64,000 bases of DNA, from positions 590 through 64,589 of the forward strand of contig JBKKCR010000096.1 of NCBI GenBank assembly GCA_046712825.1. Direction: 5' to 3'. The position numbers were made by a program, and so were the translations under genes. Below the pieces are notes generated by a model. It saw only the letters and a program-made list of their open reading frames with translations. It was not told the origin of the DNA and made no database searches. This stretch comes from Actinomycetota bacterium (lineage in GTDB: Bacteria; Actinomycetota; AC-67). This document shows positions 14,053-58,422 of the stretch, piece by piece; position 1 is the first letter of the stretch; the number at the start of each line of letters is the position of its first letter.

Positions 14053-14058
14053 AGCGTC

Positions 14059-24304: not shown

Positions 24305-24384
24305 AGGTGAGGCACGGCTCCAGGGGATCGCAGCAATACCTTCGCACGGTTCTGTTACAAGCCACCCACAGGGAGGGGGCGACA

Positions 24385-24967: not shown

Positions 24968-26239
24968 CTAACGTTCCGCGTCGTTCCCGAGGGCGAACCG
25001 GTAATACGTGAGGCGGGCAACCCTTCCGTCCTCGAGGGTGACGGCCAAGATCCGGAGATGCAGAGACCCATCCGGGGCAGCGAACTTCATCACGGCCGTG
25101 GACGTCGGGACCCCCGGATGCAGATCGCCGGCCACCTGACGGCCGTCGAGCGCGGGGTCGTTCCGGGTCTCCTCGGCCAGTCGGTCCCACGCGGCGGCGC
25201 CGCGGCCCTTCCAATCGCCGCTCGGCGCGACGACCCGCACCAAGACCGACCCAAGGAGCGATTCGTTCAGCTCGTTCGCGCGCCGGCCGACGACCGCGGC
25301 GGCGATGCGGTCCACGGTCCTTTGGATATCCGTGATCTGTGAGACGTCGCTGCGCGCGCGATGCCCGCGCTCCCGGTCACGCAGCCGTCCACGCAAACGC
25401 CGCAGCGGCGGTTCGGGAAGCGGAGCCGCGGCACCGCTTGCCGACTTCGCGGCGAACTCCGGCTCGAGGTATCCCAAGCGCTCGAGGGTTCCGCCGGCGA
25501 CTTTCATAAGTGCGCTCAGGTCTGTCTCCGAGATCTTTTCGCGCCACTTCCCGGCACCCACCCGTCCGGTCGTCGGGTCCTGGTTGAAGGCGACCTTCGC
25601 CTCGCGGAGCGCCTCCTCGACCATCACCGGTGTCGCCGGGAGTCCGAACCATGCGAAGAGCTCCGCGACGTGAGCCTGTGGATCTACGAGCATCTCCTCG
25701 TAGCGGACGGTCCGAAATCGCTCCAGGCCCGCGCTCGCGGTTTCTGCGGCCTCGACCGAGCTACGCCACTCCATCGCCGCTTCCTCGAACGTGCGCGGAG
25801 CGTTCTTCCACGGCTGGGTCATGAGAGACCGTGCGACGTCGCGTCCATCACGGACGATGTTCAGGATCCACGCATCGGGATAGATCTCGCCGATCAGCTC
25901 GAGACACGTCACGTGCTCCGGGGTTCGCTCGGCCAGGCGCGTGGCGCCGGGGACGGTCTTGAGGAAGGGCAAGAAGACCCCGTCGCATAGGTTGCGCAGC
26001 GCGCGGGTCATCTCGCTTGGGTCCATGTACACGAAAGCCGTTCCCGGCGACCCCAGCACGCCGTGGTGGAAGCGCTCCCGGAGCGGCTTTATGCCTCGCG
26101 AGAAGAGATAGGTTTCCGAGGGCACCAAGGCCACCTCGGGGTGAGCGCCGAGGATGCGCTGTACCCAGTTGGTGCCGCTGCGGCGTGCGCCGACTAGGAA
26201 GATCATCCGGTCGCGCAGTGGTCCTTCGATGGAGCCCAT
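24968..26239 (-). CDS. Sulfotransferase domain (PAPS 5'-PSB loop GARRSGTNW) fused to a C-terminal ~150-aa NTF2/SnoaL-like domain
   Basis: MIFLVGARRSGTNWVQRILGAHPEV... then a RDV arginine region; C-terminal extension beyond a normal ~280-aa sulfotransferase. Confidence 0.6.
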   Translation of the reverse strand: MGSIEGPLRDRMIFLVGARRSGTNWVQRILGAHPEVALVPSETYLFSRGIKPLRERFHHGVLGSPGTAFVYMDPSEMTRALRNLCDGVFLPFLKTVPGATRLAERTPEHVTCLELIGEIYPDAWILNIVRDGRDVARSLMTQPWKNAPRTFEEAAMEWRSSVEAAETASAGLERFRTVRYEEMLVDPQAHVAELFAWFGLPATPVMVEEALREAKVAFNQDPTTGRVGAGKWREKISETDLSALMKVAGGTLERLGYLEPEFAAKSASGAAAPLPEPPLRRLRGRLRDRERGHRARSDVSQITDIQRTVDRIAAAVVGRRANELNESLLGSVLVRVVAPSGDWKGRGAAAWDRLAEETRNDPALDGRQVAGDLHPGVPTSTAVMKFAAPDGSLHLRILAVTLEDGRVARLTYYRFALGNDAER

Positions 26240-26272
26240 CCGATATGGTTCGATACCGGCGTCCTCAGCCCT

Positions 26273-26848
26273 TTACGGGCACGACCCGTTCCCTGCCGCG
26301 AGCGTGTAGACCAGATCGAACTGCCCCTCCTGGGTGATGACTCGCACCAAAGCCGGGCCCGACGGAGCGTTGGCGGGAGGTATCCAGACGCTGCGGAAAA
26401 CGCCGCTGCTGTCGGCGAACTTTGCGTCGTAGCCCGTCTTGTAGTCCGACTTCCCATCCACGCTGGAGCTGCCGTCCGAGTAGAGGGTGTTGAACCCGGC
26501 GGGACCTCCGGGGGCCGTTTGGACCGTGATGCCCTGGGTGTCGACGCCGGCACGCGCGCACGTGAGATCCAGCCGACCGGTCGATCCTCCGGTCGCGGTT
26601 GCCGAGGGCGACGGCTTCGTGGTCTTGGGGATATTCGTCGGTGTGCCGAAAGCGACGGGAGGCGACGACGTGGCGGGCGTCGTCGGCGTGGAGGTCCCGA
26701 CGGTATTTGTGGTCCCAAGGGCCGTCGGCTGCGCGCCCGGCTCCTTGTCGCCGCCGCATGCCGAAAGAACGATCGCGAGGGCCAGCACGCCCCCGCGAAT
26801 GAGGAAGCCGCCGCGCCGTCGTGAGGCTGAGTGATGAGAAGTGTTCAT
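26273..26848 (-). CDS. Lipoprotein (lipobox LSACGG) with Thr/Pro-rich linker
   Basis: ORF track; signal peptide plus Cys. Confidence 0.55.
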   Translation of the reverse strand: MNTSHHSASRRRGGFLIRGGVLALAIVLSACGGDKEPGAQPTALGTTNTVGTSTPTTPATSSPPVAFGTPTNIPKTTKPSPSATATGGSTGRLDLTCARAGVDTQGITVQTAPGGPAGFNTLYSDGSSSVDGKSDYKTGYDAKFADSSGVFRSVWIPPANAPSGPALVRVITQEGQFDLVYTLAAGNGSCP

Positions 26849-26928
26849 GGTTTCGGCCCTGAAGGGAGCCGAATCTTACACCTCGACCGGGGAGGACGCG
26901 GGTCGCCCGCCGGGACGCAGCCGGTACC

Positions 26929-27792
26929 ATGACCCGCATGCAACCCGTGGAAACGCCGCAACCGAGGCTGCCCACGTTCGTCATCATCGGCGCCATGAAA
27001 TCGGGGACGACCACGCTCGGGGCCTATCTCAATGCCCACCCCGACGCGTACTGCGCTCAAGAGCCGCACTTCTTCGACCAGAACTTCGAGCGAGGGGTGC
27101 CGTGGTACCGCGAACGCTTCCGGGACGCCGGGGCTGCGGCGGTGGTCGGCGAGAAGTCGCCTTCCTACATGTATCACCCGGATGCGATCCGGAGGCTCAC
27201 CGAGGTCTTGCCGGATGCCCGGCTGGTCGCGATCCTTCGGCATCCGGGTCACCGCGCATATTCGCACTACTGGCACGAGCGGCGGATCAAACAAGAGACG
27301 CTTTCCTTCGGCGACGCCCTCGACGCGGAGCCGCGCCGGCTGCGCGACTACGCGGACGGCCTGTGCCCCTTCGCCTACGTGGACCGCGGCCTCTACCTGG
27401 AGCAGCTCCGGCGCGTGGTCGGGTTCGCGCCGAGGGAGCGGCTGCTCGTGCTGCTCTTCGAGGATCTCCTGCGGGTGCCCGTGGAAACCTACTCCGAACT
27501 CGGTCGCTTCCTCGGCATCGACGGCTCTTTGGCCGCCCCGCCGGGCCCGGAGGAGTCGAACGCGTACCGCACCTATCATCCGGAATGGGCTTGGAAGCTG
27601 ATGCACCGGTATCGGCTCTGGGGACGCCTTCCGCGCCCGATCGCGGGACGGCTGTGGCGTGCGATGCAGCGCGAGGCGACGTATCCGCCGATCACCGAGG
27701 CGCAGCACGCGCGACTCCTCGATCGTTTCGCGGAACCCAACCGCGAGTTGGCCGATTGGTTAGGGCGCGACCTCTCCGAGTGGAGCGTCTGA
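26929..27792 (+). CDS. Sulfotransferase (heparan-sulfate/Sulfotransfer_3-like)
   Basis: PTFVIIGAMKSGTTTL (5'-PSB K-x-G-T-T) ... ILRHPGHRAYSHY (3'-PB region). Confidence 0.75.
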   Translation: MTRMQPVETPQPRLPTFVIIGAMKSGTTTLGAYLNAHPDAYCAQEPHFFDQNFERGVPWYRERFRDAGAAAVVGEKSPSYMYHPDAIRRLTEVLPDARLVAILRHPGHRAYSHYWHERRIKQETLSFGDALDAEPRRLRDYADGLCPFAYVDRGLYLEQLRRVVGFAPRERLLVLLFEDLLRVPVETYSELGRFLGIDGSLAAPPGPEESNAYRTYHPEWAWKLMHRYRLWGRLPRPIAGRLWRAMQREATYPPITEAQHARLLDRFAEPNRELADWLGRDLSEWSV

Positions 27793-27802
27793 ACTACCGG
27801 AG

Positions 27803-28633
27803 CTAGCCGATGCCCCAGCCGTCGAAGCCGGGCGGCATGTAGGCGCGCAGCCGCTCGACCGTCGGCTGCAGCCGCTCCCGAAGTTCCGACTCGACCGTGG
27901 CGGGAACCGCAACCGAGTCGGGAGCAGTGTGCCGCGTTGTGAGGCGCCGCAGCCTCCGCGCGATCGGTCGGGGCGTGGAGGGCCGTTCGGCGAGACGCCG
28001 CAGGGCCGGGATGCGATCGCCAAGGAGCGTCGGCGCAGGCTTGTCCTCGGTCCGGTGAAGCCTCTCGTCCAGGTTCGGCGGTGTCCGGCGGTCGTCCACC
28101 CCGATGAAGCCATAGATCGTTCGCAGGGTATCGGCGCGACGATCATCGAGCTCTTCGCTCGTCACGATCAGCAGCTGCTCACGAGGGAAGGACCCGAGGT
28201 ATCGCTCGATCTGGGTCGCGTAGTCGCTCAACGCGAACAGCATCGGGTTCGTCAAGAGGACTTCCGATGCCGGCCCACGTTCGCCGTACTCCGCAACATG
28301 GTGGAGGTACTGCGAAACCATGCGCCGGATGGGATGACGAACGACGTACACCATGCGCGCTTCGGGCAGCACCCGCTTGATGCGCTCGGGAACCCCCGGA
28401 AAGAACGGATGTTTCGTGTAGGAGGTCGAAGCCTCGCCTCGAGCGGCAGCGGCACCGCCCGATGCGAAGCAGCTCTCGTACCAGTCGACGCCGCGTTCCC
28501 AATTCTTGCCTTCGACGAAGAATTCGAGCTCCTTCGGCTCGGCCATGAACACGTCTGGGTGCGCTTGAAGGTACGCGTGGAGGCTCGTCGTGCCCGCCTT
28601 CATCGCGCCGATAACCAGGAAGGTCGGAAGCAT
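27803..28633 (-). CDS. Sulfotransferase (tandem duplicate of 28944..29777)
   Basis: MLPTFLVIGAMKAGTTSLHAYLQAHP...; start by frame arithmetic in ORF 27803..28774. Confidence 0.75.
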   Translation of the reverse strand: MLPTFLVIGAMKAGTTSLHAYLQAHPDVFMAEPKELEFFVEGKNWERGVDWYESCFASGGAAAARGEASTSYTKHPFFPGVPERIKRVLPEARMVYVVRHPIRRMVSQYLHHVAEYGERGPASEVLLTNPMLFALSDYATQIERYLGSFPREQLLIVTSEELDDRRADTLRTIYGFIGVDDRRTPPNLDERLHRTEDKPAPTLLGDRIPALRRLAERPSTPRPIARRLRRLTTRHTAPDSVAVPATVESELRERLQPTVERLRAYMPPGFDGWGIG

Positions 28634-28678
28634 CTGAGCTCGCACGATAACACCGGGTTGGGGGCGGCTGGGGGCCGA

Positions 28679-28790
28679 GACTACAGCACGATCGTCCGTG
28701 AGCTGATCGACCCGCGCACCATCGCGGTGACCTCCGCGAGATCGACGATCAGCGCGCCGGGAAGCTCCAGCCATCGCTGCCGGCGTCCCT
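28679..28790 (-). pseudogene. Relic of the 3' end of a GT2 gene, carried along with the sulfotransferase duplication
   Basis: ORF 28681..28941 ends ...RRQRWLELPGALIVDLAEVTAMVRGSISSRTIVL, near-identical to the C-terminus of the GT2 at 29778..30764 (...RRQRWLVLPGALLVDLAEVTAMVRGSISSRTIVL); DNA ~85% identical over ~110 bp. Confidence 0.5.
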
Positions 28791-28943
28791 CGACGACGAT
28801 CCGATCGACGACGACACGCCGACCGAACGGGGTGAGCCGCGCGTTACGATGAGCCACGAGAGCCTCCTCTCGGTTCGCACCTCGACAGCCCAAACCGTGC
28901 AGGGAGGCTCTCTCTTTGTAAAGAACGGCGCTGGGAACCACAA

Positions 28944-29777
28944 CTAGGCGATACCCCAGCCGTCGAATCCGGGCCCCATGTAGGCGCGCAGCTTCATGAT
29001 GTCGGGGCGGATCTGCGCGCGGATCCGCTCCTCGAGCTCCGCGGGGAGCTCTAGCGTGGACGTCGTCAGCGTCTTCGTGGTCACCCGGAAATGCAGGCGG
29101 CGGAGGGGAGCCGGAGTGAGCCTGGCGGCCGCGCGGTACAGACGGTTGTCGCGTATCTTTTCGATCGACTCCTTGCGGAGGTAGACCTCCCCGGTCGTGT
29201 TCGTCCGGCTCGACACCTCAGGCGGCGTCCAGCCCGGATCGACATCGAGGAAGGAGTAGACCGAGCGCATTGTCTCCACATACGAACCACGCAAGCCTTC
29301 GGTCGTGATGAGGAGGATCTGCTCGCGCGGGAAGTGACTCAGATAGTGCTCCAGTTGCCACGCGTACTGACTCGCGCGCACGTACCCGGGATGCTCACGC
29401 AAGGCCCGCTCCGGCGACCGCGACTCGCTTCCGGCGCGCAAGCGCTCCAGGTAGTGGGAGCGTAGACGCTTCATCGGGTCGCGTAACAGGTAGATGAGCT
29501 TCGCGTCCGGGATCAGGTCCGCGATCCGACCCGGCACTCCCGGATATGCATGGGCGAGTGTGTACTCCGGCGAGGCTTCTCCGATTGCCGTGGCGTCCCC
29601 AGCGCCGGCGAATTGGTCCAGGTACCAGTTCTGCCCGCGCCCCCAGTTCTTCTCCGCGATGAAATAAGCGAGCTCCTTTTCGGCCGGAGTGAAGATCTGC
29701 GGGTGGGCTCGCAGGTGGTGCCAGAGGCTGGTGGTCCCCGCCTTCATCGCGCCGATGACCAAGAAGGTCGGAAGCAT
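28944..29777 (-). CDS. Sulfotransferase
   Basis: MLPTFLVIGAMKAGTTSLWHHLRAHP...; ~50% identical to 27803..28633. Confidence 0.75.
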   Translation of the reverse strand: MLPTFLVIGAMKAGTTSLWHHLRAHPQIFTPAEKELAYFIAEKNWGRGQNWYLDQFAGAGDATAIGEASPEYTLAHAYPGVPGRIADLIPDAKLIYLLRDPMKRLRSHYLERLRAGSESRSPERALREHPGYVRASQYAWQLEHYLSHFPREQILLITTEGLRGSYVETMRSVYSFLDVDPGWTPPEVSSRTNTTGEVYLRKESIEKIRDNRLYRAAARLTPAPLRRLHFRVTTKTLTTSTLELPAELEERIRAQIRPDIMKLRAYMGPGFDGWGIA

Positions 29778-30764
29778 CTACAAGACGATCGTTCGTGAAC
29801 TGATCGATCCGCGCACCATCGCCGTAACCTCGGCGAGATCCACGAGAAGCGCGCCGGGAAGCACGAGCCAGCGCTGTCGCCGTCCCTGAGCGAGCGGCGC
29901 CGTCCGCACCCGATACCAGATCCAAGGGATCGCAAGCAGCAGCGCTGCGCGCTTGCGCGGCGCCAGGAGCAAACCGGCCATGGCGGCCAGCGCGGTCGGA
30001 TGAGACGGCTTCCAGAAGAGCCCTCCGTACAGATAGCCGCGCCCTTCCGGGTGCAACTTGACGACGCGGGGGATACCCGTCCATTTGAGCGCGTCCCGGG
30101 TTGCCGCGCGCAGGTCGCTCGGCTTCACGTCGTGATGCACGAGCGCCTCGGGCGCGAAGATGGCTTCCACGCCGCGGCGACGGATGCGCCAGCCGAGGTC
30201 GGTGTCTTCACCTCCGTGACGGCTGAAGGCCTCGTCGAAGCCGCCTGCTGCCTCGAGGTCGCTCCGGCGATAGAAGATGTTGCACGTCTCGAAGTAGGTG
30301 GCGTCCCTGACCGTGATCGTCCGTGAGAACGGGCCTTCAAGGTGCTGCTGGGCCGGGTCGGGGAGCGTGCGGCCGACGACGATCCGGGGACCCGCCCCCA
30401 GAGCTTCCAGACCTCGCTCGAGCCACGACGGCGTCGGGACGCAATCGTCGTCGGTGAACGCGACGACCGGTGCACGGGCACGGCCCCAGCCGATGTTGCG
30501 CGCGGCCGCCTGCCGCCGGTTGCGGCCGTCTCCGAGGATCTCGATGGACAACGTGCTGCGTCGCGCCAGGCCGGCGAGCAGCTCCACGGTTCCGTCGGTG
30601 GAGCCGTCGTCGACGAAGATCACCTCGAAGGAGCTCGGTGGAAGCGTCTGGGCCTCGAGCGCGCCGATGAGCCGCGGGAGGAGCTCGGCGCGATTGTAGG
30701 TTGCGATCACGACCGAGACGCGCGGGGCATCGCCGTTCGCGCTGCCGCGCTTCAGGCGCGCCAT
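29778..30764 (-). CDS. Glycosyltransferase family 2
   Basis: VSVVIATYNRAELLPRLIGALEAQT...EVIFVDDGSTDGT...AFTDDDCVP; start MARLKRG by frame arithmetic. Confidence 0.8.
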   Translation of the reverse strand: MARLKRGSANGDAPRVSVVIATYNRAELLPRLIGALEAQTLPPSSFEVIFVDDGSTDGTVELLAGLARRSTLSIEILGDGRNRRQAAARNIGWGRARAPVVAFTDDDCVPTPSWLERGLEALGAGPRIVVGRTLPDPAQQHLEGPFSRTITVRDATYFETCNIFYRRSDLEAAGGFDEAFSRHGGEDTDLGWRIRRRGVEAIFAPEALVHHDVKPSDLRAATRDALKWTGIPRVVKLHPEGRGYLYGGLFWKPSHPTALAAMAGLLLAPRKRAALLLAIPWIWYRVRTAPLAQGRRQRWLVLPGALLVDLAEVTAMVRGSISSRTIVL

Positions 30765-31591
30765 GACGACAAGTCCCTCCCGAGAAGCTGTTCGAGGCCG
30801 GCGATCTGGTCCGCGTATGCCTGGACGAGGCGGCGGCGAAGCTCGGGATCCATCGGCTCGTACGTGCTGCGGTCCGGACGCACGTTCATCGCGTTGATAC
30901 GCCAAGCCCACGAGCGCGGGATGCGACGCTTCAGGCGGGCCTTCAACACCGCCTCTCTCAGACGCACGGAGCGGACGCGCATCCGCGGATTGTAGGTCTT
31001 GCCCAGGTTGTCGGGCCGGTACCCGTCGTCGACGCCGAGGAATCGGCAGGCGTCGCCATACACGCCCGAAGCGTCCGACGCCAGATCCTCGAATAGCATC
31101 ACCATCAACGCCGAGGGCGGAAAGAGGCCGTGGAGTTTCCGGATCTGTTCCAGGTATCTGCCTCGAGCGAGGTAGAAGCCGAACGGTGGCGCCGTCCCCG
31201 CAAGCTCCTCGTCCACGACTTGAGCGAGCGGACGCTTTTCGCGGCCGATCGCACGGAGGTGGAGGAACTGCGAGTAGATCCGCTCCGCGGGATGCCGCAG
31301 GATCGCGATCATGCGGACGTCGGGCAGTAGCTTCGCCATCCGGTCCGGAACGTCCGGATGGGCCATGTACCCGGGGGTCGCCTCACCGATGGCGGGTTTG
31401 CCGGCACCGGCAGCGAACTGCGCTCGGTACCACTCTTCTCCCGCCTCGTAGCGATGAGGGTTGTCGAAGAAGTGAAGTTCCTTCTCCGAGGGGATGAAGA
31501 CCTCGGGGTGTTCGCGCAACCATGCCGCGAGCGAGGTGGTTCCGGCTTTCATCGCACCGATGATGAGGAAGTTCGGCAGCGGCGCGGTCAT
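30752..31591 (-). CDS. Sulfotransferase
   Basis: LPNFLIIGAMKAGTTSLAAWLREHP ... MIAILRHPAERIYSQF. Confidence 0.75.
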   Translation of the reverse strand: MTAPLPNFLIIGAMKAGTTSLAAWLREHPEVFIPSEKELHFFDNPHRYEAGEEWYRAQFAAGAGKPAIGEATPGYMAHPDVPDRMAKLLPDVRMIAILRHPAERIYSQFLHLRAIGREKRPLAQVVDEELAGTAPPFGFYLARGRYLEQIRKLHGLFPPSALMVMLFEDLASDASGVYGDACRFLGVDDGYRPDNLGKTYNPRMRVRSVRLREAVLKARLKRRIPRSWAWRINAMNVRPDRSTYEPMDPELRRRLVQAYADQIAGLEQLLGRDLSSWRA

Positions 31592-31604
31592 CTCGTTGCC
31601 CGCC

Positions 31605-32477
31605 TCATGGGACGCGTCCCTCGACGAACGGCACCTCGAAGACCTTGTCGTGGGCGACGGGGCCGTGGCCGAAGTATCCGTCCTCACCGAAGAGCTCACC
31701 GTGGTCGGACGTCACAACGACCCAGGTGTTGCTCGGGACGAGGTCGAAGAGCCGCTCGACGACGCCGTCTAAATAGCGGACGGCGTTGATCTGACGGTCG
31801 CGCAGCTCGGCGAGCTTCGCGTCGTCGAAGAACTCCGGTTCGCCTTCGGCGCCCGGCTGGTCGTCGAGTCGTTTGAAGACGCCGTGCACGCCCGATATCC
31901 GCGGCCAGGTCGAGGGGTCCTCATCGGGAAGCGCGTAGGGGTAGTGCGTCTCGCCGGTGTTCAACAGGTAGAAGGAAGGCCGCTCTTCCGAGAACGTCAT
32001 CTGGTCGAGCATGGCCGCCATGTCGTTGTGCTTCGGCATCAGCTCGTATGAGTCGAAGTCGCGGTTGATTGGCGTATGCCGGTTCAGAACCGGCATCGAC
32101 ACCATCGCATGCGTCGCGTAGCCGAGCTCCTTGCGAAGGAAGGTCGGCATGAAGATCGACGGAAGGAGCCGCTTGAACTCGATGCCTTGGACGCCGATCC
32201 GTTCGCTGTACCGGGTGAAGTCTTGCTTGTAGTACTCGGACGCGTACACACGAGGAGGGCTCGTATGAGGGAGGAGACCCATCAGCAAGTTGTAATGCGA
32301 CGGCGCGGTCCACGACGCATAGCTCCACCGCCGTTCGGGCTTTCCGAGGAGGCTCAGGGTCTTGGGGGAAGCGGCGACCCACGAGTCGTAGCGGCAAGAG
32401 TCGAAGATGACGACGACGAGGTTCCGCGCGCCCTCGGGGGGGCGCGGGCGTTCGGGCGCGGCTTCGGAGGGATCCAT
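31605..32477 (-). CDS. Alkaline-phosphatase-superfamily NPP/phosphodiesterase-like enzyme (second copy)
   Basis: LVVVIFDSCRYDSW, TAPSHYNLLMGLLPH (T-x-P-S-H), VVVTSDHGELFGEDGYFGHG; start at MDPSEA. Confidence 0.65.
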   Translation of the reverse strand: MDPSEAAPERPRPPEGARNLVVVIFDSCRYDSWVAASPKTLSLLGKPERRWSYASWTAPSHYNLLMGLLPHTSPPRVYASEYYKQDFTRYSERIGVQGIEFKRLLPSIFMPTFLRKELGYATHAMVSMPVLNRHTPINRDFDSYELMPKHNDMAAMLDQMTFSEERPSFYLLNTGETHYPYALPDEDPSTWPRISGVHGVFKRLDDQPGAEGEPEFFDDAKLAELRDRQINAVRYLDGVVERLFDLVPSNTWVVVTSDHGELFGEDGYFGHGPVAHDKVFEVPFVEGRVP

Positions 32478-32559
32478 CGGTCTCCAGGCTCTCGCTACAG
32501 GCACGGGGTGACCCGTCCGAGGCATTCTACCGGCGGGTTTCGACCTGCAGGGTAGGCTG

Positions 32560-33411
32560 TTGCGGTTCGGCTTCTTGATGGAGGATCGAGTGGATCGAAG
32601 CGATCGTTCCGGGCTCGCGGGTGCGAAAGTGGTCGCCCACAAGGCGCTCGCGTGGGCGAAGCGTCACGAAGCCGAGGGAGCACGAGCGATCTACGGCGCA
32701 CGCCGCGCCGCGTTCATCGCGCGGATGAAGGTCCAGGCCGCGTGGCAAGGGGCCCAGGTCGACGTCGAGGTCGCTCCCGACGTCCGATTCGGCAAGGACA
32801 TCGCGATCACGGTCTGGCCGGGCTCGCGCAACAGCATCCGCATCGGAGCGGGTTCGCGCATCGGCGACCGCGTGCTCTTCATCCTGAACGACGGACGCAT
32901 CGACCTCGGCGACAACGTCGAAGTGCGCAGGGACAGCACGTTCATGATGTGGGGGGGCTCGCTCGAGCTCGCAGGCGACAACATCCTGTCGTGGGGCAAC
33001 GTGATCCATTGCGCGTCGTCGATCCGGCTCGGCAGGATGACGTCCACCAACGAGTGGGTCACGATCGTCGACTCGAGCCACTACTTCACCACGCCCGACG
33101 AGTTCTTCTACCACAACACCAAAACCGGCCCGATCGAAGTCGGCAAGAACACGTGGATCTGCTCCAAGGCGACGCTGGCGCGCAACGCGAAGATCGGCGA
33201 TCACTGCATCATCGCGGGCAACTCGATCGTGAGCGGCGAGGTCCCCTCGGGGCACCTCGCGTCGGGCGTCCCCGCGCAGGTCGTTCGCGAGCTGGAGCTG
33301 CCGTGGAGACAGTCGGCCCCAACGCTGGTGGGCGCGACGGAACCTCGCAAGCCGGCGAAGCGCCGTCCCGCCGCGCGCAAGCCGCCGAAGCCGGCCGAGC
33401 CGACCGACTAG
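32560..33411 (+). CDS. Left-handed beta-helix (hexapeptide-repeat) acyl/acetyltransferase
   Basis: Repeated [LIV]G-x-x-x-x-[LIV] hexads: IGAGSRIGDRVLF, DLGDNVEV, IGDHCIIAGNSIVSGEVP. Confidence 0.7.
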   Translation: MRFGFLMEDRVDRSDRSGLAGAKVVAHKALAWAKRHEAEGARAIYGARRAAFIARMKVQAAWQGAQVDVEVAPDVRFGKDIAITVWPGSRNSIRIGAGSRIGDRVLFILNDGRIDLGDNVEVRRDSTFMMWGGSLELAGDNILSWGNVIHCASSIRLGRMTSTNEWVTIVDSSHYFTTPDEFFYHNTKTGPIEVGKNTWICSKATLARNAKIGDHCIIAGNSIVSGEVPSGHLASGVPAQVVRELELPWRQSAPTLVGATEPRKPAKRRPAARKPPKPAEPTD

Positions 33412-34022
33412 CTCCGCCGATCGATCTGCACGGCGGCGACCACGAAACCATCCGCCGTCGCGTAGCGAGCCGTGAAGGTCGGCGGAACCCGGGCATCGAT
33501 CGCGTGGCTCACGATCCGTCCCTCGAGCATCCCGGGACTTGCTTCGATGTACGCGACGTCCTGGAACCCAAGTCGCCTCGCGCCGAGCGGCGCGAGGGCC
33601 TTGTACGTCGCTTCCTTGACGCAGAACAGAGCGAGCAGTACATGGGGCTCGGCAAATCGCGACAGCTCTTCGGGGGTGCAGATACGCCGCGCGGTTCGCG
33701 TGTTGATGTGGCGCCCTTGGGCCTCGACGTCGATGCCCAGGCTCTCCAGTTCACCGGTGGAGGCGGTCACCGCGATCGCGACATCGTTCGTGTGGGCTAT
33801 GGAGCCGGTCAGTCCTGAGGGCCACACGGGCTCGCCGTCTGGTCCACGAGGAACGTCCGGCTGTGTCGTGCCGAGGTCCTTCATCGCGGCCGCCGCCGCC
33901 TCGCGACCGGCGACGAACGGACCGGCGCCACCGACCGCGACCACTCCGATCCCGACCGTGACCCGGAAGAGGGCACGCACGGCGTCGATGGACGGAGCAG
34001 GCTCAGAGATGGGGAGGGTCAC
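33408..34022 (-). CDS. 4'-phosphopantetheinyl transferase, Sfp/EntD type
   Basis: WPSGLTGSIAHTNDVAIAVTAS...LGIDVE and FCVKEATYKA (PPTase motifs 2 and 3). Confidence 0.7.
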   Translation of the reverse strand: MTLPISEPAPSIDAVRALFRVTVGIGVVAVGGAGPFVAGREAAAAAMKDLGTTQPDVPRGPDGEPVWPSGLTGSIAHTNDVAIAVTASTGELESLGIDVEAQGRHINTRTARRICTPEELSRFAEPHVLLALFCVKEATYKALAPLGARRLGFQDVAYIEASPGMLEGRIVSHAIDARVPPTFTARYATADGFVVAAVQIDRRS

Positions 34023-34053
34023 GGCTCAGGCCTCGAACCGTATAGTTGGCCCA

Positions 34054-34809
34054 ATGGACATACCGGGTTTGCAGCGTACCTGGGATGAGCTCGGCCGCAC
34101 CGATCCGCTCTGGGCGGTCTTGTCCTTGCCCGACAAGCGCGGGGGACGCTGGGAGCTCGATGAGTTCCTCGCAACCGGCGTCCGCGAGATCGATGAGGTG
34201 CTCGCCAGGGTGCGAGCGCTCGGGCTCGGACCGGTGCTCGGCAGGGCGCTCGACTTCGGCTGCGGCGTCGGCCGGCTCACGCAGCCACTCGCGGGCCGCT
34301 TCGAAGAGGCCACCGGCGTCGACATCGCTCCCTCGATGATCGAGCGGGCGAAGAGCATCAACAAGCACGGGGAGCGCTGCCGGTACGTGCTGAACGACCG
34401 CGACGATCTCGGGATCTTCCCCGACGGAACGTTCGACTTCATCTACTCGAGCATCACCCTGCAGCACATGCCGCGGCCGCTGATGATGACCTACGTCGCG
34501 GAGTTCATCCGACTGTTGACCCCTGCCGGCGTCCTCGTGTTCCAGCTCCCCGCGCGGCCACCTCGCACCTTGCGCAGCCGGCTGAAGCGCTTGGTGCCGT
34601 CGGTTCTTCGGACGAGGTGGCGACGTTTCCGGCACAAGCGGGGAGCGGAGGCTCGGATGCAGATGTTCTGGACCTCCCCGGAACGAGTAGCGAGACTGGT
34701 GCGCCGCTCCGGCGGGCGGATCGAGGCCGAGCAGGACGACTACTCGGCAGGCCCGGGCTGGACGGGAAAGCGATACGTGGTCCGCCGCGCCGGGGCAGCC
34801 GCGTCGTAG
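34054..34809 (+). CDS. Class I SAM-dependent methyltransferase (paralog of 49524..50243)
   Basis: LGRTDPLWAVLS...ALDFGCGVGRLTQPLAGRFEEATGVDIAPSMIERA...ITLQHMP; internal ATG of ORF 33472..34809. Confidence 0.7.
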   Translation: MDIPGLQRTWDELGRTDPLWAVLSLPDKRGGRWELDEFLATGVREIDEVLARVRALGLGPVLGRALDFGCGVGRLTQPLAGRFEEATGVDIAPSMIERAKSINKHGERCRYVLNDRDDLGIFPDGTFDFIYSSITLQHMPRPLMMTYVAEFIRLLTPAGVLVFQLPARPPRTLRSRLKRLVPSVLRTRWRRFRHKRGAEARMQMFWTSPERVARLVRRSGGRIEAEQDDYSAGPGWTGKRYVVRRAGAAAS

Positions 34810-34822: not shown

Positions 34823-35671
34823 TCAGCCTCGGCGCGTGATCCTGCCGGTCCATCGAGCGGCGAGCACCACCGCGTGGACGGGACCGAGGTGCCGTCGCCG
34901 GAGCGCCGGCCCGTCGGCGGCAACCTGATCGATGGCGGTGCCGAGGCGGAGGAGCATGGCGCCGTCCCGCCAGGGCTTCGGCCGGATCCCGTAGCGAGCC
35001 AGCTCGGAGAATCCCATCCCGAGCTTGCGATGCAGCGCCCAGGTGTCGCGCAGCGTCGCGCGCGGGTGGTGCTTCACCTGCGCCTCGGCCGCGTACACGA
35101 GCCGGTAACCGGCGCGCGACGCCCGCCGACAAAGCTCCTGATCTCCCGAGGCGGTGAGCTGCGGCACGAACCCTCCGAGGTCGGCGAACACCTTCGCTCG
35201 CACGAACAGGTTGGCGGTCGCGGCGAAGTGCTCGACCCGGATGTACAGATCCTGATCGAGGTAGGTCGCGCGGTCGTAGCGCTCCCAAACCGACGGGTCC
35301 GGGCTCGCCATCTGCACGATCCGCCCTCCGACGAGGTCGGCACCGCCGTCGAGGGCGGCGACGCCTTCGGCGAGCCACCGCGGATCGGGAAGACAGTCGG
35401 CGTCGGTGAACGCGAGGATCTCTCCTCGAGCGGCGGCGATGCCGGTGTTCCGGGCCGCGTACGGGCCGCGAGCGGGCTCCATCTCGAGTCGAGCGCCGAT
35501 CCTGTGGGTCCGCACCAGGTCCGGCGTCGCGTCGCGCGATCCGTTGTCGACCACGATCACCTCGAACGGCGGCGCGCCTTCTTGCGCCGCGAGCGCATCG
35601 AGACACGCGGTAACGCGCCGGGCCTCGTTCAGCACCGGCATGATCACGCTGACGCGCGGCGCTCCCGTCAT
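34823..35671 (-). CDS. Glycosyltransferase family 2
   Basis: VSVIMPVLNEARRVTACLDALAAQ...EVIVVDNGSRDAT...AFTDADCLP. Confidence 0.8.
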   Translation of the reverse strand: MTGAPRVSVIMPVLNEARRVTACLDALAAQEGAPPFEVIVVDNGSRDATPDLVRTHRIGARLEMEPARGPYAARNTGIAAARGEILAFTDADCLPDPRWLAEGVAALDGGADLVGGRIVQMASPDPSVWERYDRATYLDQDLYIRVEHFAATANLFVRAKVFADLGGFVPQLTASGDQELCRRASRAGYRLVYAAEAQVKHHPRATLRDTWALHRKLGMGFSELARYGIRPKPWRDGAMLLRLGTAIDQVAADGPALRRRHLGPVHAVVLAARWTGRITRRG

Positions 35672-36750
35672 CCGATCATGGTCTCGTAGAGGCCGTCCAT
35701 CGCTCGGGCAGTCTCCGCCCAGTCGAAGCGCTTCACCCATTCCGGACCGGCGGCGCCCATGCGCCGCGCGAGCGGTTCGTCGGAGAGCACGCGCTCGAGT
35801 GCGTCCGCCAGCCCGGCAGGGTCGTTCTCGGGGACGACCAGCGCGGTGCGGCCCTCATCCACGAACTCGGGGATCCCGCCGTGACGGGTCGTGACGACCG
35901 GCCGGCCGCTCGCCATCGCCTCGAGGTTGACGAGGAGCAACGTCTCGACGTCACCGTCGGCTGCCGTGCGGCTCGGCGTCACGATCACGCGGGCTCGCCT
36001 GATGGCGTCGCGCACCTGCGTACCTCGCCGTGACGGATCGGCCGGCTCCACGACGACGCCCTCGCCGCCCGAGTGCGCGAGGTTCTCGAGCGGACCGAAG
36101 CCGAGAAGGACCAACCGAGCTCCGGGCACGCGACGCCGGACCTCCTCCCACGCTTTCAACAGGACGTCGAGGCCCTTCTTCTCGACGAAGCGTCCGACGA
36201 ACAGGGCCTCCGGGACACCGTCGGGAAGCGGCGTCGGTGTGAAGAACGACGTCTCGACCCCCGACGGGATGACGTGTATGCGGTCGCCTGGAACTCCGGC
36301 CTCCTCGACCGCGCCGATGATGAATCGCGACGGGACGACCACGGCATCGGCTACCCGCAGCGGGTCGACGACCCCCGGCCACTGCCGCGCGTACGCCGTA
36401 ACGTCTTGCCCGTGGACCGACACGACCAGGGGCAGCTTCATGCGGCGCACGGCACCGAGCACATCCGAAAGACGGTACGCGTGGTGGTGATGGACGAGCT
36501 TCGCGCGATGAGCCGTCCCGATCGACACGATCGCAGCCGTCAGGATCCGTCGCTCGGCGATCGTGGGCGGGTCGTGCCGTTTCGCCAGGCGCGCGAGGCT
36601 GTAGAGCGGCTTGATCGGGAACGTCTCGCGGTTCTCGATGGCGTCGCGAGAAACCACCACGACCTTGTGCCTCGTGCGCGTGAGGAGCGTGTGCACGAAC
36701 TGCTCCGACAGCGGCAGATACCGCTGCATCGTGTGGAGCACCGTATTCAT
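35668..36750 (-). CDS. Glycosyltransferase family 4
   Basis: ...LVNLEAMASGRPVVTTRHGGIPEFV...; ATGA-type overlap with the downstream GT2. Confidence 0.8.
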   Translation of the reverse strand: MNTVLHTMQRYLPLSEQFVHTLLTRTRHKVVVVSRDAIENRETFPIKPLYSLARLAKRHDPPTIAERRILTAAIVSIGTAHRAKLVHHHHAYRLSDVLGAVRRMKLPLVVSVHGQDVTAYARQWPGVVDPLRVADAVVVPSRFIIGAVEEAGVPGDRIHVIPSGVETSFFTPTPLPDGVPEALFVGRFVEKKGLDVLLKAWEEVRRRVPGARLVLLGFGPLENLAHSGGEGVVVEPADPSRRGTQVRDAIRRARVIVTPSRTAADGDVETLLLVNLEAMASGRPVVTTRHGGIPEFVDEGRTALVVPENDPAGLADALERVLSDEPLARRMGAAGPEWVKRFDWAETARAMDGLYETMIG

Positions 36751-36784
36751 CTCACGGCCCGTCCGCCCCGCGGAGCCCGAGCGA

Positions 36785-38533
36785 TCATGCCGATGCTGCG
36801 CTGGGCTCCCCGGATCCGATGTAGCCCTCACGCTCGAGGTGCAACACGATCTGCTGGGCGGCTTCCTCAGGCGTGAGCTCGGTGGTATCGATCGTGATGT
36901 CGGCGTCCACGGGCTCCTCGTATGGATCCGAGATCCCGGTAAACTCCTTGAGGATCCCGGCGCGGGCCTTGGCGTAGAGCCCCTTCCGGTCGCGCTCCTC
37001 GCAGATCTCGAGCGGCGTCGCGACGTGGATCAGCACGAACCCGCCCATCGGCTCGATCATCCCGCGCACCTCTTTGCGGATGCTGTCGTAGGGCGCGATC
37101 GGGGCACAGATCGCTATGCCGCCGTTCTTGGTGATCTCGGACGCCACATAGCCGATGCGACGGATGTTGATGTCGCGATGCTCGCGGGAGAAGCCGAGCT
37201 CCGAAGACAGGTTCTTGCGAACCAGATCCCCATCGAGCATCGTGACCGGCCGCCCGCCCATCTCGAGGAACTTCACGAACAGCGCGTTCGCGATCGTCGA
37301 CTTCCCCGATCCCGACAGCCCGGTGAAGAAGACTGTGAGTCCCTGCTTGTGCCGCGCCGGATGCGTCTTGCGTAGCTCGGTGACGACCTCGGGGAACGAG
37401 AACCAGCTCGGGATATCGCGACCGTCCCCGAGCCGTTCGCGCAGCTCGGTTCCCGAGATATCGAGCACGCGCTCGCCTTCGGGCACCTCGTCCTCGGGGA
37501 AGTACGTGTCCCGGTCGGGCACGTAGAGCATCTGGCGGAACGGCACCATCCCGACGCCCAGTTCCTCCTCGTACTTCCGGAGCAGGTCCTGCGCGTCGTA
37601 GGGGCCGTAGTAGGGCGTTCCCTCGGGATCCTTGCCCGGTCCGGCGTGGTCGCGTCCCACGATGAAATGGGTGCAGCCGTGGTTCTTGCGGATGATCGCG
37701 TGCCAGACGGCCTCACGCGGTCCGGCCATGCGCATCGCCAGCGGCAGCAACGCCAGCTTCGCCGAGTACGACGGATAGCGATGCATGAGCGCCTCATAAC
37801 AGCGGACGCGTGTGTAGTGGTCGACGTCGCCGGGCTTGGTCATCCCGACCACCGGGTGCACGAGTAGGTTCGCCTCGAGCTCCTTGGAGGCGCGCAGCGT
37901 CAGCTCGAAATGCGCGCGGTGCATCGGGTTCCGCGTCTGGAACGCGACGATCTGCCGCCACCCCAGTCGCGAGAACTCCTCTCGGAGCTGCCGTGGCCCG
38001 AGGCGAAGTCCCGTGTAGTCGTAATGGATCGGCAGTTGGAGCCCCTCGATCTTGCCGCCAACGAACCACGCGTGCGTGCGGTCGGCCAGGTGCCCGACGC
38101 CGGGATGAGAGGTGTCGGTGTTTCCGTACACCTGCTCTGCCTCGGCCATCCGATCCGGCTTCCACACGTCGGTGATGTGGAGGACGGCGAGCATGACGCC
38201 TTCGGGATCCCGCAGCGCGAGCGCAGCGCCCGACCCGAGGCCCTTCGCGACGTCCTCGGTGACGTCGAGCACGACGGGGATGGGCCACAGCGTGCCGTCC
38301 GCCAAGCGCATGCGCTCGCAGACCTCCCGATGGTCCGCCTCCCCCATGAACCCCTCAAGCGGAGAGAAGCCGCCGGTGAGCAAGAGTTCCAGGTCGCAGA
38401 TCTGGCGGGGGGTCAGGTCCCAGGACGGCCATTCGCGGGAGGCGACCTTGAGCTGTGCCGAGCGGTTCTCGTCGGTCATGAGGTCGACGAGGCTGCCGCC
38501 GTGGGGCGGGATGAGATGGTCTTGGGCGCTCAC
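36785..38533 (-). CDS. Bifunctional sulfate adenylyltransferase (ATP sulfurylase) / adenylylsulfate kinase = PAPS synthase
   Basis: N-terminal sulfurylase (QTRNPMHRAHFEL, HFIVGRDHAGPG) plus C-terminal APS kinase (GLSGSGKSTIA Walker A, DGDLVRKNLSSELGFS). Confidence 0.85.
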   Translation of the reverse strand: MSAQDHLIPPHGGSLVDLMTDENRSAQLKVASREWPSWDLTPRQICDLELLLTGGFSPLEGFMGEADHREVCERMRLADGTLWPIPVVLDVTEDVAKGLGSGAALALRDPEGVMLAVLHITDVWKPDRMAEAEQVYGNTDTSHPGVGHLADRTHAWFVGGKIEGLQLPIHYDYTGLRLGPRQLREEFSRLGWRQIVAFQTRNPMHRAHFELTLRASKELEANLLVHPVVGMTKPGDVDHYTRVRCYEALMHRYPSYSAKLALLPLAMRMAGPREAVWHAIIRKNHGCTHFIVGRDHAGPGKDPEGTPYYGPYDAQDLLRKYEEELGVGMVPFRQMLYVPDRDTYFPEDEVPEGERVLDISGTELRERLGDGRDIPSWFSFPEVVTELRKTHPARHKQGLTVFFTGLSGSGKSTIANALFVKFLEMGGRPVTMLDGDLVRKNLSSELGFSREHRDINIRRIGYVASEITKNGGIAICAPIAPYDSIRKEVRGMIEPMGGFVLIHVATPLEICEERDRKGLYAKARAGILKEFTGISDPYEEPVDADITIDTTELTPEEAAQQIVLHLEREGYIGSGEPSAASA

Positions 38534-38729: not shown

Positions 38730-39575
38730 GTGGGACACCAGATGGCCTCAGTTCCGGTCGAACAAGGGTTCGAGCTGCGCGGAGAGCGCAGCCGCTTGTC
38801 CACGCTCGTTCGCGACCTGTGGCGCTCTCGCGAGCTCGTCATCATGCTGGCGCGCAAGGACTTCTTCGTCCGCTACCGCCGCGCGTCGCTCGGAATCATC
38901 TGGGCCATCGGCCTTCCACTCGTCCAGGCGTCCGTCTTCGCCTTCGTCCTGAGTCAGTTCGCTCGGTTCGAGACACCCATCCCCTTCGCGGTCTTCGTTT
39001 TCTCGGGCGTCCTTCCGTGGAGCTTCTTCAACAACGCGGTGACGATGGGTACCACCTCGATCATCGACGGGTCGGCGCTTGCGACGAAGATCTACTTCCC
39101 GAGGGCTGTCTTGCCGCTCGTAACGGTCTTCTCGGGTTTCTACGGACTGATTATCGGCATCGTGGTCATGGTCGCGATGGCCGGCGCATTCGGCGCGCCG
39201 CTCGGCCTTCCGCTGCTCCTCCTGGTGCCGGCGATGGCGCTGCTCGTACTGCTCGCTTCCGGATTCGCTCTGATCCTGGGAGCGCTCCAGGTCTACTTCC
39301 GCGACATCAAGCACGTGATAGCGGCGATCACGCTGCCGTGGTTCTGGGCCTCCGGCGTCTTCTACCCCCAATCGGTCCTGAGTGAGGACTTCCGCCGCCT
39401 GATAGCGATCAATCCTGCGGTCGGGATGATCTCGCTTTTCCGAGCCGCGATCGGCTCCGCCCCCGCCGGCTGGGAGACGAGCGTCTTTTGGTCGATCGGC
39501 TGGGTCGTTGCGTTGTTCGTCCTCGCGGCCGTTCTGTACCGGCGCTGGGACCGAGTATGCGTGGATCTCCTGTGA
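38730..39575 (+). CDS. wzm: ABC-2 type polysaccharide exporter permease (Wzm/TagG-like)
   Basis: LWRSRELVIMLARKDFFVRYRRASLGIIWAIGLP (ABC-2 signature), 6 TM. Confidence 0.8.
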   Translation: MGHQMASVPVEQGFELRGERSRLSTLVRDLWRSRELVIMLARKDFFVRYRRASLGIIWAIGLPLVQASVFAFVLSQFARFETPIPFAVFVFSGVLPWSFFNNAVTMGTTSIIDGSALATKIYFPRAVLPLVTVFSGFYGLIIGIVVMVAMAGAFGAPLGLPLLLLVPAMALLVLLASGFALILGALQVYFRDIKHVIAAITLPWFWASGVFYPQSVLSEDFRRLIAINPAVGMISLFRAAIGSAPAGWETSVFWSIGWVVALFVLAAVLYRRWDRVCVDLL

Positions 39576-39600
39576 CGAGGAGACCGAAGGGCTCGCGCGC

Positions 39601-40845
39601 ATGACGCAGCGCGGCCGCGTCCATCTCGACGATGCCGGAAAGCGGTACGTCAAGTACGACGACGTCCCTCTTCTGCTCACCCGCGCGTTGCGTTTCCGCG
39701 CGGGGCACAAGAAAACCCATCTCTGGGCGGTCCGGCATGTAAACCTGATGGTAGAGCCTGGGGAGACCGTCGGCGTCATCGGACGCAACGGCTCGGGAAA
39801 ATCCACGATGTTGCGGATGCTCGCCGGGGTAACGGCCCCGACGGAGGGGGTCGTGACCGTTCACGGGCGCGTCGCGCCGCTCATCTCCGTCGGCGTGGGT
39901 TTCCACCCCGAGCTGACCGGACGCGAGAACGTGTACGTCAACGCGACGGTGCTCGGCATGCGGCGTAAAGAGATCGACCAGCTCTTCGATTCGATCCTCG
40001 AGTTCTCCGAGATCGAGAATTTCATCGACACCCCCGTCAAGTTCTACTCGTCGGGGATGTTCGTGCGACTCGGCTTCGCCGTCGCGGTCGCTGCGCGGCC
40101 GGACGTGCTCCTGATCGACGAGGTGCTCGCCGTCGGCGACGTCGCCTTCCAGGCCAAGTGCTTCGACCGCATGGAGGAGATCCGCAGTCAGGGGACGAGC
40201 GTGCTCGTCGTCAGCCACAACCTGAACGCCGTCCGGCTGCTGTGTAAAAGGACCCTCGTTCTGCACAACGGCGAGATGAAGTTCCTCGGCGACACCGATG
40301 CGGCGATCTCCCTGTACCACGAACTACTCGCGGTCCCCGTCGAGGAGCCGTCCGAGCCGGGCAACCAGGCGGCTCCCGTCCGGATCGAATCGTTCGCCAT
40401 GGTGGGGGAGAACGGGCTGGCGACCAACCATGTGAAGTTCGGTGAGGACGTGGCCTTCGTGCTCGAAGCGGAATTCCTGGCCGCCGTGCCTCGCCCGGCC
40501 TTCTCGTTCGTCCTCGCCAACGAGAAAGGCCAGATCGTCTACTCCGACGACGCGCACAACGCGGAGTTCCAGCGCTCATACCAGGCGGGAGAACGGGCAC
40601 GGTTCGAGGCGAGGATCCGAGCTACCCTTCCGACCGGCACATACAAAGCGCGCTGCGCGGTTCGATGGAAGGTCGGCGAAGAGGTCGACCGCGCCGCGCG
40701 CTACGTCACCTTCTTCGTGTCGGGGCGTCCGTTGGTGAAAGGCCTCGCCGATCTCGAGGCGGCGTTCACGGTTGAAGGAGGGTCGTCGGCCCTCACGGAG
40801 GCCGAGGCGACGCCGGTCGAACCGCTCGAGTCGGACGCGGGGTAG
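39601..40845 (+). CDS. wzt: ABC exporter ATPase (Wzt/TagH-like) with C-terminal carbohydrate-binding (Wzt_C-like) domain
   Basis: GVIGRNGSGKSTMLRMLAG, LSGG-equivalent YSSGMFVRLGFAVA, D-loop; ~190-aa C-terminal beta-rich extension. Confidence 0.8.
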   Translation: MTQRGRVHLDDAGKRYVKYDDVPLLLTRALRFRAGHKKTHLWAVRHVNLMVEPGETVGVIGRNGSGKSTMLRMLAGVTAPTEGVVTVHGRVAPLISVGVGFHPELTGRENVYVNATVLGMRRKEIDQLFDSILEFSEIENFIDTPVKFYSSGMFVRLGFAVAVAARPDVLLIDEVLAVGDVAFQAKCFDRMEEIRSQGTSVLVVSHNLNAVRLLCKRTLVLHNGEMKFLGDTDAAISLYHELLAVPVEEPSEPGNQAAPVRIESFAMVGENGLATNHVKFGEDVAFVLEAEFLAAVPRPAFSFVLANEKGQIVYSDDAHNAEFQRSYQAGERARFEARIRATLPTGTYKARCAVRWKVGEEVDRAARYVTFFVSGRPLVKGLADLEAAFTVEGGSSALTEAEATPVEPLESDAG

Positions 40846-56251: not shown

Positions 56252-56263
56252 GGAGGATCGTCG

Positions 56264-56629: not shown

Positions 56630-56651
56630 CGTCTCGACGCGAGGACGAGTC

Positions 56652-58418: not shown

Positions 58419-58422
58419 CGCG

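Follow-up and report, generated by a model that had tools for sequence, protein, structure and literature searches.

What does a 4'-phosphopantetheinyl transferase (PPTase) do inside a locus for a sulfated polysaccharide? The question arises from a stretch of 64,000 nucleotides of the Actinomycetota contig JBKKCR010000096.1 (hereafter, the window), in which a PPTase gene converges on the gene of a hexapeptide-repeat acyltransferase in the middle of a glycan locus of ~42 kb (about 12.2–54.2 kb of the window, from Pfam scans of its whole length). With Mg2+, such an enzyme would transfer the phosphopantetheine arm of coenzyme A (CoA) to a carrier protein, at its conserved serine. The original prediction for this DNA had held that polysaccharide synthesis does not need a PPTase, and that its presence suggests either a carrier-dependent acyl or aminoacyl decoration of the glycan or a link to a lipid made by a polyketide synthase (PKS) or a nonribosomal peptide synthetase (NRPS), as in the mycobacterial sulfolipid-1 (SL-1) pathway. 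We favour, with a probability of roughly 55%, a different reading: one lineage gained a functional PPTase at the end of an operon for 3'-phosphoadenosine 5'-phosphosulfate (PAPS) synthesis and glycosyl transfer; this enzyme primes carriers encoded elsewhere, the glycan pathway and its O-acetyltransferase being independent of it.

Identity of the PPTase

The PPTase gene (33408..34022, reverse strand) starts with a GTG codon, has a GAGG 9–12 nt upstream, and encodes a protein of 204 aa whose translation carries SLGIDVEAQG and LFCVKEATYKALAP. The two PPTase half-domains occur in a single chain, each above the Pfam gathering score (4PPT_N, 3.3e-15, 56.3 bits for a cut-off of 27; ACPS, 3.8e-10, 40.2 bits for a cut-off of 25), which characterizes the type-II (EntD/PptT-like) enzymes. 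The AlphaFold2 model of the protein is confident (pLDDT 92, pTM 0.89), and Foldseek aligned it to PptAb, PptT, MuPPT and PcpS with TMq values of 0.70–0.82 (0.75–0.82 for PptAb and PptT). Among PDB sequences, the top phmmer match was PptAb of Mycobacterium abscessus (6qwu, 1.8e-21), with PptT of M. tuberculosis at about 1e-16 (range for PptAb and PptT, 1.8e-21 to 2.5e-16); the EntD model (1.6e-10) and the Sfp structure (5.5e-6) matched more weakly than these two. The top NCBIfam models were PptT (NF050105, 77.2 bits) and Npt (72 bits), whose cut-offs of 365 and 370, respectively, are far higher. By its sequence, the enzyme is PptT-like and not a PptT orthologue, since 77 bits compare with a cut-off of 365.

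Six residues (R40, H77, D98, E100, E137 and K141) are invariant in an alignment of 22 sequences. From the HMMER alignment and the structures of PptT, we take them to correspond to R56, H93, D114, E116, E157 and K161 of PptT, which contact the 3'-phosphate and the diphosphate of CoA, bind Mg2+ and provide the catalytic base and lysine. All 14 clusters of the clade to which this PPTase belongs (see below) have an open frame, and 59 columns are invariant within it, including every catalytic and CoA-binding residue checked. The gene most likely encodes a functional type-II (Sfp/EntD/PptT-class) PPTase, as motifs, conserved residues and predicted fold all indicate, and this part of the original prediction stands. 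The clade nevertheless differs from nine aligned typical EntD/PptT-type enzymes by a gap of ~21–25 residues near the N-terminus, which makes its members ~25 residues shorter. Owing to this gap, R48 of PptT, an arginine in contact with the CoA 3'-phosphate, has no equivalent in the clade, and the position of PptT W170 is taken by a variable polar residue.

The Corynebacteriales enzymes PptT and PptAb (PDB 4qjk, 6qwu, 6rcx) are the best match in both sequence and structure and have the same two-lobed fold, although identity to them is only ~33–38% in the best tblastn segments and 26–28% in the structure-based alignment. PptT is encoded away from its client carrier proteins, a trait that the PPTase studied here would share; the latter differs in its position inside a glycan operon, and mycolic acids or polyketide lipids are not known from its host lineage. 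EntD, Sfp and PcpS share with it the superfamily, the Pfam architecture and the GIDxE and (F/W)xxKE(A/S)xxK motifs, but the similarity is weaker. Their genes typically accompany siderophore or lipopeptide synthetases, which we did not find in the window.

Distribution and genomic context of the PPTase

A search of 5.8 billion proteins for homologues of the PPTase returned 39 hits. Fourteen clusters form a tight clade (51–100% identity, 194–212 aa), after which the matches drop to 43–44% and below. A tblastn scan of the contigs of GTDB representative genomes found no member of this clade, the best matches being PptT of Corynebacteriales (33–38%) and a protein of one Actinomycetota metagenome-assembled genome (MAG; 42%). 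Every clade member with readable surroundings (in the window and in contigs L001, L002/L003, L004/L005, L006/L007, L008, which is the same as contig L172, L091, L092 and L171) sits in the same sulfated-glycan locus with the transporter genes wzm and wzt. The longer contigs share one gene order. Genes for a Wzy_C protein, a small protein, a GH99-like protein, Wzt and Wzm precede those for a bifunctional ATP sulfurylase/adenosine 5'-phosphosulfate kinase (Sat/CysC), a GT1 and a GT2 glycosyltransferase, in some cases a methyltransferase, and the PPTase; then come, in some cases, a sulfotransferase or GT47 gene, followed by the hexapeptide gene, a sulfatase-like gene, and finally sulfotransferases and glycosyltransferases.

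In the window, the PAPS-synthesizing Sat/CysC (36785..38533; Pfam PUA_2, ATP-sulfurylase and APS_kinase) is the first gene of a string on the reverse strand that continues with the GT1/GT4 glycosyltransferase (35668..36831; Glycos_transf_1/Glyco_trans_1_4; its start is uncertain and it overlaps its neighbours) and the GT2 glycosyltransferase (34823..35740; Glycos_transf_2, 1.9e-29). An S-adenosylmethionine (SAM)-dependent methyltransferase gene (34054..34809, forward strand; Methyltransf_25/11) lies between the latter and the PPTase, from which it diverges across a 31-nt spacer. This methyltransferase is found next to the PPTase in L002, L006, L008 and L091 and is absent in L001 and L004, where the GT2 gene and the PPTase meet in a TGATG overlap (L001) or across a 3-nt gap (L004). 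As it directly follows the GT2 gene where no methyltransferase intervenes, the PPTase closes the Sat/CysC-GT1-GT2 string. The interval between the GT2 and hexapeptide genes is variable (33408–34809 in the window; L002:9194–11525; L006:9243–11550; L008:2341–4984), with a methyltransferase, sulfotransferase or GT47-like gene in different relatives, and is a hot spot of gene gain and loss.

Of the conserved core genes, the PPTase evolves fastest. Between the same pairs of genomes, its identity is 51–68%, compared with 81–85% for the hexapeptide enzyme, 77–91% for the GT2, 77–97% for the GT1 and 89–97% for Sat/CysC. The ratio of nonsynonymous to synonymous substitution rates (dN/dS, by the Nei-Gojobori method) ranges from 0.22 to 0.43 (~0.33) over 28 pairs of PPTases. 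Among the other six genes compared, it is 0.08–0.25 for the GT2, 0.12–0.23 for the methyltransferase, 0.10–0.24 for the hexapeptide gene, 0.10–0.21 for the GT1, 0.07–0.15 for the sulfatase-like gene and 0.05–0.14 for Sat/CysC. The PPTase is thus the least constrained of the seven, yet the estimates place it clearly under purifying selection.

Versions of the locus without a PPTase

In two more distant versions of the locus, tblastn with 22 PPTases found no PPTase in ~20 kb each, returning noise only (E ≥ 0.007). One of them, L173/L174, has hexapeptide proteins 73–77% and a Sat/CysC 80% identical to those of the window, and L173 is collinear with the window: its sulfatase-like gene is followed by a hexapeptide gene convergent with the GT2 and GT1 genes, and then by Sat/CysC, Wzm and Wzt. 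The other, L175/L176, is more divergent (66% for the hexapeptide protein, 76% for Sat/CysC). In L175, the hexapeptide gene, with a sulfatase-family gene at the same position beside it, converges directly on the GT1 gene without a GT2, and Sat/CysC, Wzm and Wzt follow. Since these loci keep the acetyltransferase, the glycosyltransferases, Sat/CysC and Wzm/Wzt without a PPTase, the pathway does not require one.

The PPTase is present in every readable contig of its clade and absent from L173 and L175, which keep the rest. Sat/CysC is 88–97% identical among PPTase-bearing loci, whereas the L173 and L175 proteins are 79–82% and 76% identical to these, respectively, and 79% to each other. Judged from these distances only, the pattern fits L173 and L175 as successive outgroups and, hence, a single gain of the PPTase. 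We also considered the junction sequences as an arbiter between gain and loss; they are indecisive because the states with and without the PPTase both end in the same shared CTAG tetranucleotide (see below).

The convergent hexapeptide acyltransferase

The hexapeptide gene (32560..33411, forward strand) encodes 283 aa from a TTG at 32560; the public gene call of an identical protein gives 273 aa, which corresponds to a GTG start at 32590. Its match to Pfam Hexapep is above gathering (6.5e-9, 35.5 bits for a cut-off of 27), in agreement with the original identification of this gene. NCBIfam returned WbbJ (1.7e-13, 50.5 bits for a cut-off of 243), EpsC, WcaF (27.6 bits for 326), LacA (37.4 bits for 347) and Maa. 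Because all these matches are under the equivalog cut-offs, we assign the enzyme at class level only: on sequence similarity, it is a member of the sugar O-acetyltransferase class (WbbJ/WcaF/LacA/Maa group). The models of LpxA and LpxD, which use acyl-ACP (acyl carrier protein), matched much more weakly (E values of 1e-7 to 1e-5 versus 1e-13 to 1e-8 for the acetyl-CoA users), and the top PDB matches were galactoside and maltose O-acetyltransferases, aligned over residues 178–246.

With the WbbJ/WcaF/LacA/Maa enzymes, its best family and PDB matches, it shares the left-handed beta-helix and the C-terminal hexapeptide block, and with WbbJ and WcaF also the location in a polysaccharide locus. It differs from them in its length (70–90 residues more), in its helical N-terminal region and basic tail rich in proline, and in belonging to an Actinomycetota-specific family. 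This family is large (>100 homologue clusters, 44–94% identity, in Actinomycetota MAGs) in comparison with the 14 clusters of the PPTase clade. Most likely, the enzyme would take its acyl group straight from acetyl-CoA. Grouping as it does with acetyl-CoA-dependent O-acetyltransferases, it would need no carrier protein.

The hexapeptide gene and the PPTase run tail to tail with zero intergenic spacer, their stop codons sharing the palindrome CTAG (33408..33411). The same overlap occurs in L001 and L004 (L004:10582–10585), and in the PPTase-less L173 a CTAG (L173:10804–10807) is common to the stops of the hexapeptide and GT2 genes. We found no terminator-like hairpin between the convergent genes, and a promoter and terminator scan around them gave nothing above shuffled expectation. 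On the far side of the hexapeptide gene, its conserved neighbour encodes a sulfatase/alkaline-phosphatase-superfamily protein (31605..32642, reverse strand; Pfam Sulfatase, 2.6e-11; NCBIfam STM4013, 2.7e-18, below cut-off), which is 86–92% identical in L002, L004, L006 and L008, 50% in L001 and 76% in L173.

Search for a carrier protein and partner enzymes

A carrier-dependent decoration would call for a carrier protein and an enzyme to load it. Pfam scans found no PP-binding, AMP-binding or ketosynthase match in any called gene of the window and no condensation-type domain in its 64 kb. An additional scan of 133 six-frame open reading frames (ORFs) touching unannotated stretches matched 28 families at E ≤ 0.05; the 25 strongest were glycosyltransferase, methyltransferase, STAS and weak incidental families, with neither PP-binding nor AMP-binding among them. 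A regular-expression search of the six-frame translation for the carrier-type motif G-x-[DNEH]-S found none in a plausible setting; phmmer with four ACP sequences gave no match in the window, nor did tblastn with a genuine ACP from a sister contig, L011 (described below). The original statement that the window holds no carrier protein is thus upheld at the sensitivity of these searches, which a very divergent carrier could escape, since the genuine ACP of L011 itself scores just 20.0 bits on PF00550.

The homologous loci agree with the window. Seven further contigs with the PPTase, each 8 kb or longer, contained no carrier, ligase, PKS or NRPS in the ~8–21 kb examined around this gene; tblastn with the AMP-binding ligase of L011 found nothing in the window or in L001–L008; and queries with the L011 ACP, ligase and dehydrogenase returned noise only (E ≥ 0.007) in the ~20 kb each of L173 and L175. 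Three small proteins without a Pfam family (24307–24900, 26273–26848 and 42774–43328) were considered as carriers and rejected because of other features. All three are conserved across related loci: the first kind bears a signal peptide, another is a lipoprotein in which an LSACGG lipobox and a linker of low complexity are recognizable, and the remaining one is a membrane protein encoded directly upstream of the Wzy_C gene.

We searched the literature for PPTases encoded in gene clusters of sulfated glycans or O-antigens and found nothing relevant. The tetronate module rfbKLMNO of Vibrio cholerae O1 and the rhizobial NodF/NodE are carrier-protein-dependent modules for the acylation of glycans or glycolipids, which this glycan-type locus resembles in combining a PPTase with an acyltransferase. 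However, such modules are defined by a carrier and its loading enzyme, and we found neither in the window or in the examined stretches of the homologous loci. With an acetyl-CoA-type neighbour, related loci that lack the PPTase and no carrier or ligase in the stretches examined, the acyl or aminoacyl decoration originally proposed finds no support.

The proposed link to an SL-1-like PKS fares no better. The SL-1 pathway comprises Stf0, Pks2, PapA1/2, FadD23 and MmpL8, with PptT acting in trans. Our locus resembles it in combining PAPS supply, sulfotransferases and a PptT-like enzyme in one organism, but of the components that define the pathway it has only the PAPS supply and the sulfotransferases, as the 64 kb contain no PKS, FadD, PapA-type acyltransferase or MmpL. 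Instead, an initiating phosphoglycosyl transferase, many glycosyltransferases, Wzm/Wzt and an O-antigen-ligase-like protein speak for a polymer pathway and not for a trehalose lipid.

Nearest relatives of the PPTase outside the clade

The PPTases closest to the clade occur in surroundings that are unrelated or of a housekeeping kind. That of L009 lies beside a GNAT and a hydrolase gene, that of L010 within a redox gene set, and that of L096 in the order purQ, purL, purF, ..., histidine kinase, PPTase, radical SAM. In L011 (identical to L095; Actinomycetota MAG SMAG_U9793), L093 and L098, a PPTase 39–43% identical to that of the window converges on a hexapeptide transferase of 204 aa. Behind this transferase, L011 has an AMP-binding ligase, an acyl-CoA dehydrogenase and, on the other strand, the ACP already mentioned (L011:5769–6008; 79 aa, with GIVDSLGVMEL). 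Beyond it lie an O-methyltransferase, a GT2-methyltransferase fusion and a radical SAM gene, the module spanning L011:1742–9729. From its gene content, the L011 arrangement is a bona fide carrier-dependent module; its trio of ligase, carrier and acyl-CoA dehydrogenase resembles aminoacyl-carrier dehydrogenation modules such as those for pyrrolyl-carrier formation.

We considered whether the PPTase-hexapeptide pair could be ancestral and common to this sister group, and downgraded the idea: the window and L011-group hexapeptide proteins are ~29% identical, no closer than generic members of the family, of which more than 100 are closer to the window enzyme, and L096, a close relative of L011 (its radical SAM neighbour is 92% identical), has no ACP cassette. 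We read the PPTases of this subfamily as resident genes beside which accessory modules come and go, and the presence of the PPTase alone cannot imply a local carrier-dependent step.

Weighing the possible roles of the PPTase

Under the reading that we prefer, a single narrow lineage of uncultured Actinomycetota would have acquired the PPTase at the 3' end of a Sat/CysC-GT1-GT2 operon, within a locus whose glycan is predicted to be sulfated, methylated, O-acetylated and exported by Wzm/Wzt. There the PPTase would lie tail to tail with a sugar O-acetyltransferase of the WbbJ/WcaF type, while older forms of the locus would work without a PPTase. Its substrates would most likely be one or more carriers encoded elsewhere in the genome, as is the case for the mycobacterial PptT-type enzymes, which are the most similar to it and are also not encoded beside their clients. 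Several points weigh against this reading. That a carrier is encoded elsewhere in the genome is an assumption, and the choice of gain over loss follows a midpoint-style reasoning from identity values only. The PPTase has been retained in all readable members of its clade despite local insertions of methyltransferase, sulfotransferase or GT47 genes, and with its overlapping or 3-nt-spaced junctions it looks more like a member of the pathway than like a passenger. Finally, the sister PPTases found beside a hexapeptide transferase and an ACP cassette make it conceivable that PPTase, acyltransferase and carrier chemistry were linked ancestrally.

The PPTase might instead be dedicated to a stand-alone carrier that, with its loading enzyme, is encoded outside the locus, the acyl or aminoacyl group being then moved to the glycan, possibly by the hexapeptide transferase. 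We regard this as possible but rather doubtful. It fits the conserved position of the gene in all 14 contigs with readable context and its integration into the operon end. The L011, L093 and L098 PPTases, which converge with a hexapeptide transferase, to which L011 adds ligase, dehydrogenase and ACP, also speak for it. The pantetheine arm is, moreover, common to CoA and holo-carriers, so that an acyl-S-carrier might, in principle, serve a beta-helix enzyme of the acetyl-CoA type as donor. Nevertheless, neither the 64 kb of the window nor the stretches of the seven other contigs revealed a carrier, ligase or dehydrogenase, and the loci without a PPTase keep the same hexapeptide enzyme. The low identity between the focal and sister hexapeptide proteins suggests that their pairing with a PPTase may be coincidental, and even beside the sister PPTases the ACP cassette is dispensable, as L096 shows. 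Were this explanation true, it would point to an uncultured lineage whose cells carry an unusual surface polymer, both acylated and sulfated.

The rapid evolution of the gene could also be taken to mean that it is a relic, either the remnant of a carrier-dependent module since lost or a chance insertion, and drifting without any remaining role. Its identities between genomes are the lowest of the core (51–68% against 77–97%, and against 86–92% for the sulfatase-like gene outside L001), its dN/dS is the highest of the seven genes, and it lacks the ~25 N-terminal residues that include the equivalent of PptT R48. We think this unlikely: dN/dS is well under 1 in 28 of 28 pairs, the frame is open in 14 of 14 clusters with the checked catalytic and CoA-binding residues among the invariant columns, and the predicted model is confident and fully folded. 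PPTases, furthermore, generally evolve fast. More speculative still, and in our view very improbable, is that the PPTase fold serves a non-canonical reaction without any carrier, in which the phosphopantetheine of CoA would pass to the hydroxyl of a sugar or to a pathway protein, or in which the enzyme would bind PAPS. The arguments for it are circumstantial: PAPS and CoA share the 3'-phospho-ADP moiety, the PPTase shares its operon with a PAPS-synthesis gene and glycosyltransferases, no carrier gene was found, and the N-terminal deletion of the clade removes one of the arginines that contact the CoA 3'-phosphate in PptT. However, the full canonical catalytic set and the PptT-like fold are retained, no sequence feature points to a changed substrate, and the outgroup loci work without the PPTase; our literature searches found no precedent, and none is known to us. 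If true, this would be a new activity of the fold and a new kind of glycan substituent.

In our preferred reading, the lesson is mostly cautionary: a PPTase in a glycan cluster invites the inference of carrier chemistry, while the comparative context identifies it here as a lineage-specific addition to a pathway that copes without it, and its neighbour as an ordinary O-acetyltransferase of the acetyl-CoA type.

An antisense open frame

The window is GC-rich (63–72% in 2-kb bins), and a long open frame of 445 codons (33472..34809, forward strand) runs antisense through the PPTase and continues in-frame into the methyltransferase. We rejected it as a gene and consider it an artefact of the GC-rich sequence. 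In L171, the public gene call is the equivalent fused ORF of 469 aa (L171:11018–12427), and because the caller chose this frame the PPTase was missed; tblastn recovers it at L171:11036–11641 on the reverse strand, 100% identical to P0014. Long antisense ORFs in GC-rich DNA are thus an annotation trap that can hide this PPTase, with one public gene call affected.

The surrounding sulfated-glycan locus

The embedding of the two genes in a glycan locus, as first proposed, is evident from the Pfam content of the region. In addition to the Sat/CysC, the locus as a whole encodes about twelve GT1/GT2 glycosyltransferases, five or six SAM methyltransferases, two sulfatase-superfamily proteins and six Sulfotransfer_1/3 proteins (among them 24968–26272, 26863–27792, 27803–28843, 28944–29777 and 30752–31699), together with an initiating Bac_transf enzyme (50269–51783), Wzm/Wzt (38730–40845) and a Wzy_C/O-antigen-ligase-like membrane protein (43232–45145). 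As predicted from these families, the layout is that of an ABC-transporter-dependent pathway for a sulfated and methylated polymer and not that of a lipid pathway. Such a locus (12200–54200) is unusual for a bacterium and implies that an uncultured lineage of Actinomycetota makes a surface glycan with heavy sulfation and methylation; loci collinear with it occur in at least 10 other metagenomic contigs. Two GH99/GH71-like proteins are encoded within it (14053–15540 and 41030–42478), the second of which has a signal-peptide-like N-terminus and adjoins Wzt in all relatives; they may be enzymes for polymer processing or release.

Towards the right end of the window, an ORF of 823 aa (53780–56251) has a strong coding signal (GC content at third codon positions, GC3, 0.85) and no Pfam or NCBIfam match. 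Downstream of it lie genes for a cupredoxin, an amidohydrolase-like protein and a pyrroloquinoline quinone (PQQ) beta-propeller/cupredoxin protein (56252–60348). The STAS match of the six-frame scan (1.3e-11) comes from one of the 133 ORFs, whose exact position was not located, and suggests an anti-sigma-factor antagonist gene missed by the GC3-based gene list. At the window end, a bacterial type IB topoisomerase (61165–62631, reverse strand; Topoisom_I and Top1B_N_bact) adjoins an ATP-dependent DNA ligase (63027–64000, forward strand).

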